From Squalus acanthias (taxonomy: Eukaryota): a DNA stretch of 64,000 bases. The notes beneath the pieces were generated by a model. It was not told the DNA's origin. It ran no database searches and saw only the letters and a program-made list of their open reading frames with translations. The position numbers and the translations under genes were made by a program. Every line of letters begins with the position of its first letter. The first letter of the stretch is position 1. Shown here in pieces: positions 43,885-46,702 of this stretch. The stretch is from contig CM059432.1 of the NCBI GenBank assembly GCA_030390025.1, forward strand, positions 15,254,001 through 15,318,000. The letters are read 5' to 3'.

Positions 43885-46702
43885 TTTTTTATTAGTTCCT
43901 GGGATGTGGGCATCGCTGGCAAGGCCAGCATTTATTGCCCTTGAGAAGGTGGTGGTGAACTTGGAGGGGAACTTGCAGGTGATGGTGTTCCCATGCGCCT
44001 GCTGCCCTTGTCCTTCTAGGTGGTGGAGGTTGCGGGTTTGGGAGGTGCTGTCGAAGAAGCCTTGGTGAGTTGCTGCAGTGCATCTTGTAGATGGTACACC
44101 CTGCAGCCACGGTATGCTGGTGGTGCAGAGAGTGAATGTTTAAGGTGGTGGATGGGGTGCCAATCATACGGGCTGCTTTGTTCTGGATGGTATCGAGCTT
44201 TTTAAGTGTTGTTGGAGCTGCACTCATCCAGGAAAGTGGAGATTATTCCATCACACTCCTTACTTGTGCCTTGTAGATGGTGGAAAGGCTTTGGGGAGTC
44301 AGGAGGTGAGATACTTTCTGTAGAATAACCAGCCTCTGACCTGCTCTTGTTGCCACAGTATTTATGTGGCTGGTCCAGTTAAGTTTCTGGCCAATGGTGA
44401 TCCCAGGATGTTGATGGTGGGGGATTTGGTGATGGTAATGCTGTTGAATGTCAAGGGGCGGTGGTTAGACTCTCGCTTGTGATGGAGGGAAGGTCATTGA
44501 TGAAGCAGCTGAAGATGGTTGGGCCTAGGACACTGCCCTGAGGAACTCCTGCAGCGATGTCCTGGGGCTGAGATGATTGGCCTCCAACCACCACAACCAT
44601 CTTCCTTTGTGCTAGGTATGACTCCAGCCAGTGCAGAGTTTTCTCCCTGATTCCTATTGACTTCAATTTTACTAGGGCTCCTTGATGCCACACTCGGTCA
44701 AATGCTGCCTTGATGTCACTCTCACCTCACCTCTGGAAATCAGCTCTTTTGTCCATGTTTGGACCAAGGCTGAAATGAGGTCTGGAGCCGAGTGGTCCTG
44801 GCGGAACCCAAACTGGGCATCAGTGAACAGGTTATTGGTGAGTAAGTGGCGCTTGATAGCACTGTCGAAGACACCTGCCATCACTTTGCTGATGATGAAG
44901 AGTACACTGATGGGGCAGTAATTGACCGGATTGGATTTGTCCTGCTTTTTGTGGACAGGACATATCTGGGCAGTTTTCCACATTGTCGGGTAGATGCCAG
45001 TATTGTAGCTGTACTGAAACAGCTTGACTAGAGGCGCGGCTAGTTCTGGAGCACAAGTCTTCAGCACGACAGCCGGGATGTTGTCAGGGCCCATAGCCTT
45101 TGCTGTATCCAGTGCGCTCAGCCGTTTCCTGATATCACATGGAGTGAATCGAATTGGCTGAAGACTGGCTTCTGTGATGGTGCGGTCGTCAGGAGGATGC
45201 CGATATGGATCACTCGGCACCTTTGGCTGAAGATGGTTGCGAACGCTTCAGCCTTGTCTTTTGCACTCGCATGCTGGGCTCCACCGTCATTGAGGATGGG
45301 GATATTCATGGAGCCTCCTCCTCCTGTTAGTCGTTTAATTGTCCACCACCATTCATGACTGGATGAGGCAGGACTGCAAAGATTTGATCTGATCCATTGA
45401 TTGTGGGATTGCTTAACTCTGTCTATAGCATGCTGCTTCCATTGTTTAGCATGCATGTAGTCCTGTGTTGCAGCTTCCCCAGGTTGGCACCTCATTTTTA
45501 GGTATGCCTGGTGCTGATCCTGGCATGCTCTTCTGCACTCCTCATTGAACCAGGGTTGGTCCCCTGGCTTGATGGTAATGGTAGAGTGAGGGATATGCCA
45601 GGCCATGAGGTTACAGATTGTGGTGGAATACAATTCTGCTGCTGCCCCACAGTGCCTCATGGATACCCAGTTTTGAGCTGCTAGATCTGTTCTGAATCTA
45701 TCCCATTTAGCACGGTGGTAGTGCCACACAACACGATGGAGGGTGTCCTCGGTGTGAAGACGAGATTTCGTCTCCACAAGGACTGTGCGGTGGTCACTGC
45801 TACCAATACTGTCATGAACAGATGCATCTGCGACAGGTAGATTGGTGAGGACGAGGTTAAGTAGGTTTTTCCCTCGTGTTGGTTCTCTCACAGTCATGTC
45901 CTTCAGGACTCGGCCAGTAGTGGTGCTACTGGACATTGAAGTCCCCCACCCAGAGTCCATTCTGTGCCCTTGCTACTCTCAGTGCTTCTTCCAATTGGTG
46001 TTCAACATGGAGGAGTACTGATTCATCAGCTGAGGGAGGGCAGTAAGTGGTAATCAGCAGGAGGCTTCCTTGCCGAAGCCATGAGACTTCATGGGGTCTG
46101 AAGTCAATGTTGAGGATTCCCAGGGCCACTCCCTCACGACTGTACACTGTGCCGCCACCTCTGGTGGGTCTGTCCTGCCAGTGGGACAGGACATACCAAG
46201 CGATGGTGATGGAGTCTGGGACATTGGCTGAAAGTTATGATTCTGTGAGTATGACTAGCCTGTGGGACTAGTCAAGTCCCCAGATGTTAGTGAGGAGGAC
46301 TTTGCAGGGTCGACTGGGCTGGGTGTGCCGTTGTCATGTACAAAAGTGGTGCTGCGGTCAATGCCGGGTGGTCCGTCCGGTTTTATTCTTATTATTGTTT
46401 TTCGTAGCAGTTGTGTACAACTGAGTGGCTTGCTAGGCCATTTCAGATGGCAGTTAAAAGTCACATTTCAGCCAGACCAGGTAAGGACGGCAGATTTCCT
46501 TCCCTAAAGGACATTAGTGAACCAGTTGGGTTTTTACGACAATCCGGTAGTTTCATGGTCACCATTACTGATACTAGCTTTTTATTCCAGATTTATTTAA
46601 TTAACTGAATTTAATTGTGGGATTTGAACTCACGTCTCTGGATCATTATGTCCAGGCCTCTGGATTACAAGTCCAGTAACATAACTACTATGCTACCATT
46701 CC
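43885..46702 (-). mobile_element. Near full-length LINE family B: tRNA-like head, 5'UTR, single APE-RT ORF (decayed), poly-A
   Basis: KVLLTNIWGL start, VGDFN, NLLNLVLTN, SDHRTV (APE); KAMGPDNIP, QFGFRQ, GVPQGSVLGP (RT); deletion near 44480 removes the ADD motif. Confidence 0.9.
46617..46697 (-). promoter_or_regulatory. tRNA(Thr)-like Pol III head (A box, anticodon arm, B box)
   Basis: Minus strand GGTAGCATAGTAGTT; CTGGA-CTTGTAA-TCCAG (anticodon TGT); GTGAG-TTCAAAT-CCCAC. Confidence 0.72.

Follow-up and report, generated by a model that had tools for sequence, protein, structure and literature searches.

LINEs are usually viewed as Pol II units and SINEs as Pol III units. A locus on the minus strand of the window, by which we mean the complete stretch of 64,000 nucleotides of Squalus acanthias DNA analysed here, raises the question of whether a tRNA-derived head of the SINE type can belong to a protein-coding LINE and, if so, which polymerase makes the RNA of such an element.

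Structure and Identity of the Focal Element

The initial annotation had described a tRNA-like unit followed by approximately 300 nt of UTR and then directly by the APE endonuclease, the reverse transcriptase (RT) and a poly-A tail, with no space left for an ORF1. This layout was confirmed (Table 1), and the APE start KVLLTNIWGL, which had been expected near 46300, was placed at 46303, ~310 nt past the B box and ~400 nt past the 5′ end. A Pfam search of the focal element detected RVT_1 at 44454-44726 (E 1.8e-14) and matched the APE domain weakly (E 0.05). The focal copy thus contains a single APE-RT ORF with no space for an ORF1 between its 5′ end and APE. Both the esterase ORF1 and the microsatellite tail of canonical CR1 elements (HER1 type) are absent from it, and no 2A motif, taken as DxExNPGP-like, was present upstream of KVLL in the three frames of the focal copy. 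ORF1 loss has been linked to 2A peptides in the available text of PMC3894237.

Table 1: Coordinates of the focal element, its parts and related copies in the window.
Feature	Position	Strand	Remarks
Zenon LINE copy, CR1 group	46702-43885	-	2.8 kb, decayed
tRNA-derived head; element 5′ end ~46702	46617-46702	-	boxes, Rfam match, 7/7 elasmobranch consensuses
A box	46695-46685	-	read from sequence
Anticodon-like hairpin, 5-bp stem, CT-TGT-AA 7-nt loop	46676-46660	-	
Second hairpin, 5-bp stem	46655-46638	-	
B box, GTTCRANNC type, with A in place of the first G in the longer GGTTC form	46629-46621	-	
UTR/body common to LINE and short SINE-like form	46416-46616	-	matches short copy 31077-31198; joints
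LINE-only linker: A-rich tract, out-of-frame AUG site, Arg/Lys-rich stretch (ORF2 frame)	46304-46415	-	
Single ORF2: APE endonuclease, linker, reverse transcriptase; stops, frameshifts, deletions	43941-46303	-	
3′ tail: AATAAA 43936-43931, hairpin 43929-43915, A-tail 43890-43885	43885-43940	-	
5′-truncated SINE-like copy, Zenon UTR joined to Zenon tail	31077-31307	+	
5′-truncated LINE copy, FADD motif kept	15537-16829	-	gap 16285-16457 only relative to focal deletion
5′-truncated copy, same LINE	49979-50538	-	
5′-truncated copy, same LINE	26819-27304	+	
5′-truncated copy, same LINE	11198-11528	+	

The focal copy is dead, as it carries frameshifts and many stops and is ~0.5 kb shorter than the consensuses; one of its deletions took out the FADD motif, which is kept in the copy at 16.4 kb. 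No target-site duplication was found around it. In all seven aligned window copies AATAAA is invariant, 45 nt ahead of the tail, and the 3′ hairpin gave a fold z of -2.5 in the focal copy and -3.0 in the copy at 15.5 kb.

In a survey of the CR1 group published in 2026 (PMC13343379), the available text describes elasmobranch Zenon elements without ORF1 and with a poly-A tail, the missing ORF1 being universal in Zenon and the poly-A tail unique among CR1-group elements. As both traits are already published for Zenon, neither is novel here. The focal element likewise ends in a poly-A tail, and the first 400 nt of the consensus SquAca_Zenon-1 are, by eye, almost letter for letter those of its 5′ end. 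By its sequence it is a dead copy of an elasmobranch Zenon LINE, belonging to the same family as SquAca_Zenon-1/2/3, CarCar, RhiTyp, ScyCan and HypSab and differing from them structurally by decay alone. The earlier view of a once-autonomous APE-RT element, tRNA-headed in its full-length form, was supported, whereas the missing ORF1 lost its surprise. A whale-shark "CR1-Zenon" is named once in the available text of 10.1101/443036.

Among named proteins, the best relatives (72-89% identity) were pieces exonised in gene models of sharks and rays. The RT pieces were 45-53% identical to the single-ORF proteins P0008 and P0012 and scored far lower against the canonical CR1 of the window. Shark gene models with in-frame Zenon ORF2 pieces were P0001, P0002, P0006, P0009, P0010, P0013, P0014, P0016 and P0018; judging from the matches, these pieces would represent exonisation or annotation error. 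The top copies of all seven families retain 77-100% RT cover, and intact ORFs are very few (0/2313, 1/1419 and 3/612). A scan for outgroups yielded 80 distant LINE loci (21-38% identity), none of which had A and B boxes or matched the head, and which are too distant to polarise the trait.

The tRNA-Derived Head in the Window

The Rfam tRNA model matched 46617-46695 at 24 bits, below the gathering score of 29, with an E of 0.11 for 5 kb, and the alignment spans model positions 8-63 only, so that there is no acceptor stem. The head was not listed in the whole-window Rfam scan at E<=1, was not called by ARAGORN at default or at 90%, and does not form the full cloverleaf with acceptor stem of a functional tRNA gene; its folding was no better than that of shuffles (z -1.0). 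Nevertheless, an A box followed after 25-65 nt by a B box occurred four times in the window versus 0.08 times expected from 200 block shuffles, namely in the focal head and in three copies of a different SINE family. In having a 5′-terminal head that derives from a tRNA and bears both boxes, the focal element resembles a SINE2. The LINE is neither short nor non-coding (2.9-3.3 kb consensus, APE-RT frame), whereas the short form described below is both. The "variable arm" within 46676-46638 (-) duplicates the anticodon-like arm, one 5-bp stem sequence occurring twice in the focal copy and the dogfish consensuses; galeomorph consensuses have another stem sequence at that arm, with pairing retained.

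The Head as a Trait of the Family

The initial annotation had asked whether the head is constant in other full-length copies. For this comparison, the first 400 nt of each of seven elasmobranch Zenon consensuses (2,886-3,314 nt) were taken from the available part of Supplementary Table 2 of PMC13343379, representing four sharks and one ray (white shark, whale shark, catshark, three from dogfish, and stingray). By eye, all seven open with this head, continue with the UTR and then enter ORF2. Full-length copies without the head and an ORF1 deleted only here, the two findings that would have spoken against the annotation, were thus not encountered, as none of the consensuses has space for an ORF1. 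We regard it as practically certain that the head is the constitutive 5′ end of elasmobranch Zenon.

Also by eye, the consensuses of the five species start 5-10 nt ahead of the A box. Conservation covers both boxes but not the sequences of the hairpins, and there is no acceptor stem (Rfam; consensuses by eye); the stem sequences are swapped between squalomorph and galeomorph consensuses, with the two hairpins conserved (by eye). The B box of the stingray consensus is short of one base. As a control, six full B-box spellings matched 6 of 1,003 CR1-group consensus starts, all of them elasmobranch Zenon; the stingray row was missed because its box is degenerate. Looser B-box 7-9-mers matched three Zenon and ten other consensus rows, among the latter one with a B-box-like 9-mer and, by eye, no A box. 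The head is missing from all three other vertebrate Zenons, two of hagfish and one of coelacanth (by eye), which are perhaps 5′-incomplete. Since lepidopteran Zenon is without a tRNA head in the available text of PMC6740152, the head is likely an acquisition of the elasmobranch line.

Contig Cover and a Short SINE-Like Form

Contigs from four of 21 runs were aligned to the element; their summed depth does not equal copy number, contigs cannot reveal a transcription start or a polymerase, and X17, a run taken for RNA by guess only, does not bear on transcription. In three organisms cover stayed even between APE and the LINE-only linker, with no drop at the boundary between UTR and endonuclease (716k/718k/715k in X2, 193k/329k/245k in X9 and 152k/247k/118k in X13). 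It rose 4- to 17-fold across the region common to the LINE and the short form, and beyond 46696 it dropped ~80-fold or more in three of the four runs and 70-fold in the remaining one. No cluster of loose ends between 46272 and 46470 was seen among the matches listed, and no single contig of the four runs covered the head through APE.

In all four runs joints led from 46416/46417 to the LINE tail, that is, head and UTR were fused directly to the tail. These joints and the short copy in the window demonstrate a SINE-like element that shares both ends with the LINE. Most simply, this short form with a Zenon tail would be a later internal deletion of the LINE, like Persaeus; as to whether the LINE captured the head or the SINE arose by deletion, both steps probably occurred. 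Motifs of the body were not found in the supplements of a hagfish SINE paper or in two MetaSINE paper files. A scan for the junction motif gave three matches in viral contigs, all by chance, and none in metagenomes.

Transcription

In a retroposed family, the RNA starts where the 5′ end of the element lies, and internal Pol III promoters of SINEs preserve their boxes even as the stems diverge and the acceptor stem disappears. The consensus starts 5-10 nt before the A box and the collapse of cover past 46696 therefore place the RNA start where an internal Pol III promoter would put it. As the tRNA head extends across the whole family, use of Pol III appears likely, and the Zenon head is probably an internal Pol III promoter making the RNA that is copied, the template. 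Thus, the "SINE-like promoter" of the initial annotation is consistent with the conserved boxes and the position of the 5′ end, and its activity stays a prediction from sequence.

Sense-strand TTTT was absent from 730 codons of the focal LINE body and from four other copies, compared to four TTTT in 548 codons of the co-resident canonical CR1; the Phe codons TTT:TTC were 3:13 in Zenon versus 12:9 in the canonical CR1. With P values of 0.077 (codon-usage-preserving shuffle), 0.16 (dinucleotide shuffle) and 0.005 (uniform synonymous choice), this depletion is compatible with Pol III read-through and suggestive only. Two copy-specific T4+ runs in the focal UTR occur in none of the consensuses; by eye, the first 400 nt of the seven elasmobranch consensuses contain no TTTT, and the three headless Zenon starts have TTTT.

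In the mechanism we propose, a SINE head would have taken the place of Zenon's original 5′ UTR no later than in the common ancestor of sharks and rays, and the variable A-rich linker is perhaps the old A-tail of that SINE. TFIIIC would bind the A and B boxes in every new full-length copy, and Pol III would traverse the TTTT-free body and terminate in the flank. The ORF2 protein would bind the 3′ hairpin and insert the RNA via target-primed reverse transcription, and the same machinery would mobilise the short form too. The shortness of SINEs has been tied to weak Pol III processivity in the available text of PMC10886601, and 3.3 kb is far above SINE length; the same text argues that, where an element has a Pol III promoter, its coding partner has to rely on Pol II. 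AATAAA is employed by some Pol III SINE RNAs (PMC8466645, available text), and the AATAAA ahead of the Zenon tail fits Pol II processing equally well.

Translation of ORF2

Pol III RNA is uncapped. In the focal copy nine ATGs lie upstream of APE, none of which opens into ORF2, and an in-frame AUG ahead of APE is absent from the focal copy and from the stingray consensus (by eye, whole stretch displayed), so that translation would be non-canonical or lost. An AUG ~80 nt upstream is conserved in six of the seven consensuses; the focal site (46386-46384) reads ATA. Relative to ORF2, this AUG lies in another frame both in the stingray consensus and at the corresponding focal site; SquAca-2, a deleted form, is the only one in which the frames agree. 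The upstream ORF2 frame is rich in Arg and Lys and resembles the short Met-started leaders of the relatives P0008 and P0012. ORF2 might therefore start by non-AUG initiation within the basic leader, or else the conserved out-of-frame AUG might be used with a -1 shift. Two further ideas were abandoned, a common non-AUG start (TTG following the UTR) and reading through a uORF of two codons, as in each case the frame differs in two of the five species (by eye). A 70-aa open frame across the junction gave two compositional matches and no real relatives, and a search for relatives of the ORF2-frame leader found none; a hidden mini-ORF1 is thus unsupported.

The production of ORF2 is the least certain step of the Pol III explanation. 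That one 3.3-kb Pol III RNA, uncapped, without an in-frame AUG and driven by the captured tRNA promoter, serves as both template and message is a possibility which we put forward tentatively from the sequence features.

Alternative Explanations

A SINE and a LINE that came together only once at this locus, as a chimera or by chance, or an ORF1 lost in the focal copy alone, might be suspected as the window holds no second full-length copy and no target-site duplication is present. Given the identical arrangement of the seven consensuses (2.9-3.3 kb) in five species, the even cover over the junction in three organisms and the lack of ORF1 throughout Zenon, this is practically inconceivable, and the chimera was rejected on account of the consensuses. 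It also appears improbable that the headed 3.3-kb form is an untranslated giant Pol III element that is non-autonomous and depends on trans copying by a rarer, headless Zenon with a proper start codon. The missing in-frame AUG and the scarcity of intact ORFs would suit such an element, but the survey yielded only headed Zenon families in five species, and cover of APE and RT is near complete despite lineage-diverged heads, a state that requires the ORF of the source copies to be under selection. Alternatively, the tRNA-like fold might be a processing signal, with RNase P-type cleavage freeing the 5′ end from longer host transcripts. An equally sharp 5′ end would result, and the two hairpins that persist with swapped stems agree with this. 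However, RNase P requires an acceptor stem, which neither the Rfam alignment nor the consensuses reveal, and the head as a whole folds no better than shuffles. Even with the precedent of self-cleaving ribozymes, which do likewise for R2 and RTE elements (cited in PMC5786205), we consider processing very improbable.

Finally, the head could be constitutive and the coding RNA nevertheless be made by Pol II, either from the UTR or by read-through host transcription. The boxes would then remain as a relic or a chromatin aid, or because a short form that exchanges sequence with the LINE requires them; in a split version, Pol III makes the template and Pol II the message. The invariant AATAAA, Zenon UTRs without Pol III boxes elsewhere (PMC6740152, available text), the easier translation of capped RNA and the weakness of the TTTT depletion are all in line with Pol II. 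On the other hand, in each of the five species the 5′ boundary lies right ahead of the A box, this boundary is sharp in the four runs, and the upstream ATGs of the focal copy would make ordinary scanning no easier, so that this explanation seems rather unlikely to us.

Comparison with Known Systems and Significance

According to the available text of PMC6740152, lepidopteran Zenon and Persaeus resemble the elements described here in having a single ORF, a poly-A tail and a short form made from both ends; Persaeus is reported there without tRNA homology or a Pol III promoter, whereas the common 5′ end in elasmobranchs is the tRNA head. RTE-1_DAn and elements related to it are likewise LINEs with a tRNA-like sequence that matches many SINE2 elements, but they belong to the RTE clade, and PMC5786205 does not give the position and role of that sequence. 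Bov-tA, CoeSINE4 and SINE2_Gav (PMC5786205) as well as SacSINE1, HE1 and the CmiSINEs consist of a tRNA head, a body and a LINE-derived tail, like the short form. Their head sits on the non-coding SINE only, with RTE, Vingi, L2 or HER1 as partners, whereas in Zenon the coding partner is headed too (SacSINE1 and HE1 being set apart by their descriptions, not sequences). Partners of shark SINEs are L2, HER1 or CR1-2_CM in the available texts of PMC5499810, PMC4824008, PMC3747384, PMC1845163 and PMC7245038. The TRIMp3 elements Cassandra, Helenus and Ajax are, in the available text of PMC10886601, also non-SINE retroelements with a small-RNA-derived Pol III promoter; unlike Zenon, they are short non-coding LTR elements.

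The available texts of PMC13343379 and its preprint mention neither "tRNA" nor "promoter" nor "Pol III", and no description of a tRNA-headed Zenon or of a Pol III-transcribed autonomous LINE was found in a search that left Repbase, Dfam, SINEBase and subscription journals outside. The family-wide tRNA head on a known LINE family has thus apparently gone unremarked until now. Zenon makes up 0.7-6.8% of six elasmobranch genomes, a figure that may include the short form, so the SINE-type head sits on the coding form of an abundant LINE family and will lead to SINE/LINE misannotation in shark genomes. If Pol III makes Zenon RNA, the family would offer a natural test of Pol III transcript length and of the translation of uncapped RNA. 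Should a single Pol III RNA suffice, it would be a natural Pol III protein-coding unit lasting since the shark-ray split and would erase the promoter divide between SINEs and LINEs, a SINE then being the LINE unit minus its ORF. Even without Pol III, Zenon clearly exemplifies a SINE and a LINE with both ends in common, which offers a route to SINE origin through simple internal deletion.

Other Repeats in the Window

A second, unrelated tRNA-SINE family, ~460 nt long and with its A box and B box intact, is present at 19553-20015, 31721-32142 and 40826-41298 (-) and in shorter copies; one copy was called tRNA-Gln by ARAGORN, and the family has only the T-arm in common with the Zenon head. The canonical CR1 that served as control (22095-24830, -) contains an esterase ORF1 (GDSL), APE and a microsatellite tail; its middle is deleted, joining APE to the C-terminal part of RT. 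Two repeats occur in two copies each (13013-13778/62212-62973, 95% identical, and 35740-36629/55113-56013, 84%), and a Pfam scan of the open frames in both gave no match. Strong hairpins at 56162-56249, 56666-56737 and 57609-57702 matched miRNA models far below thresholds and are probably inverted-repeat elements.
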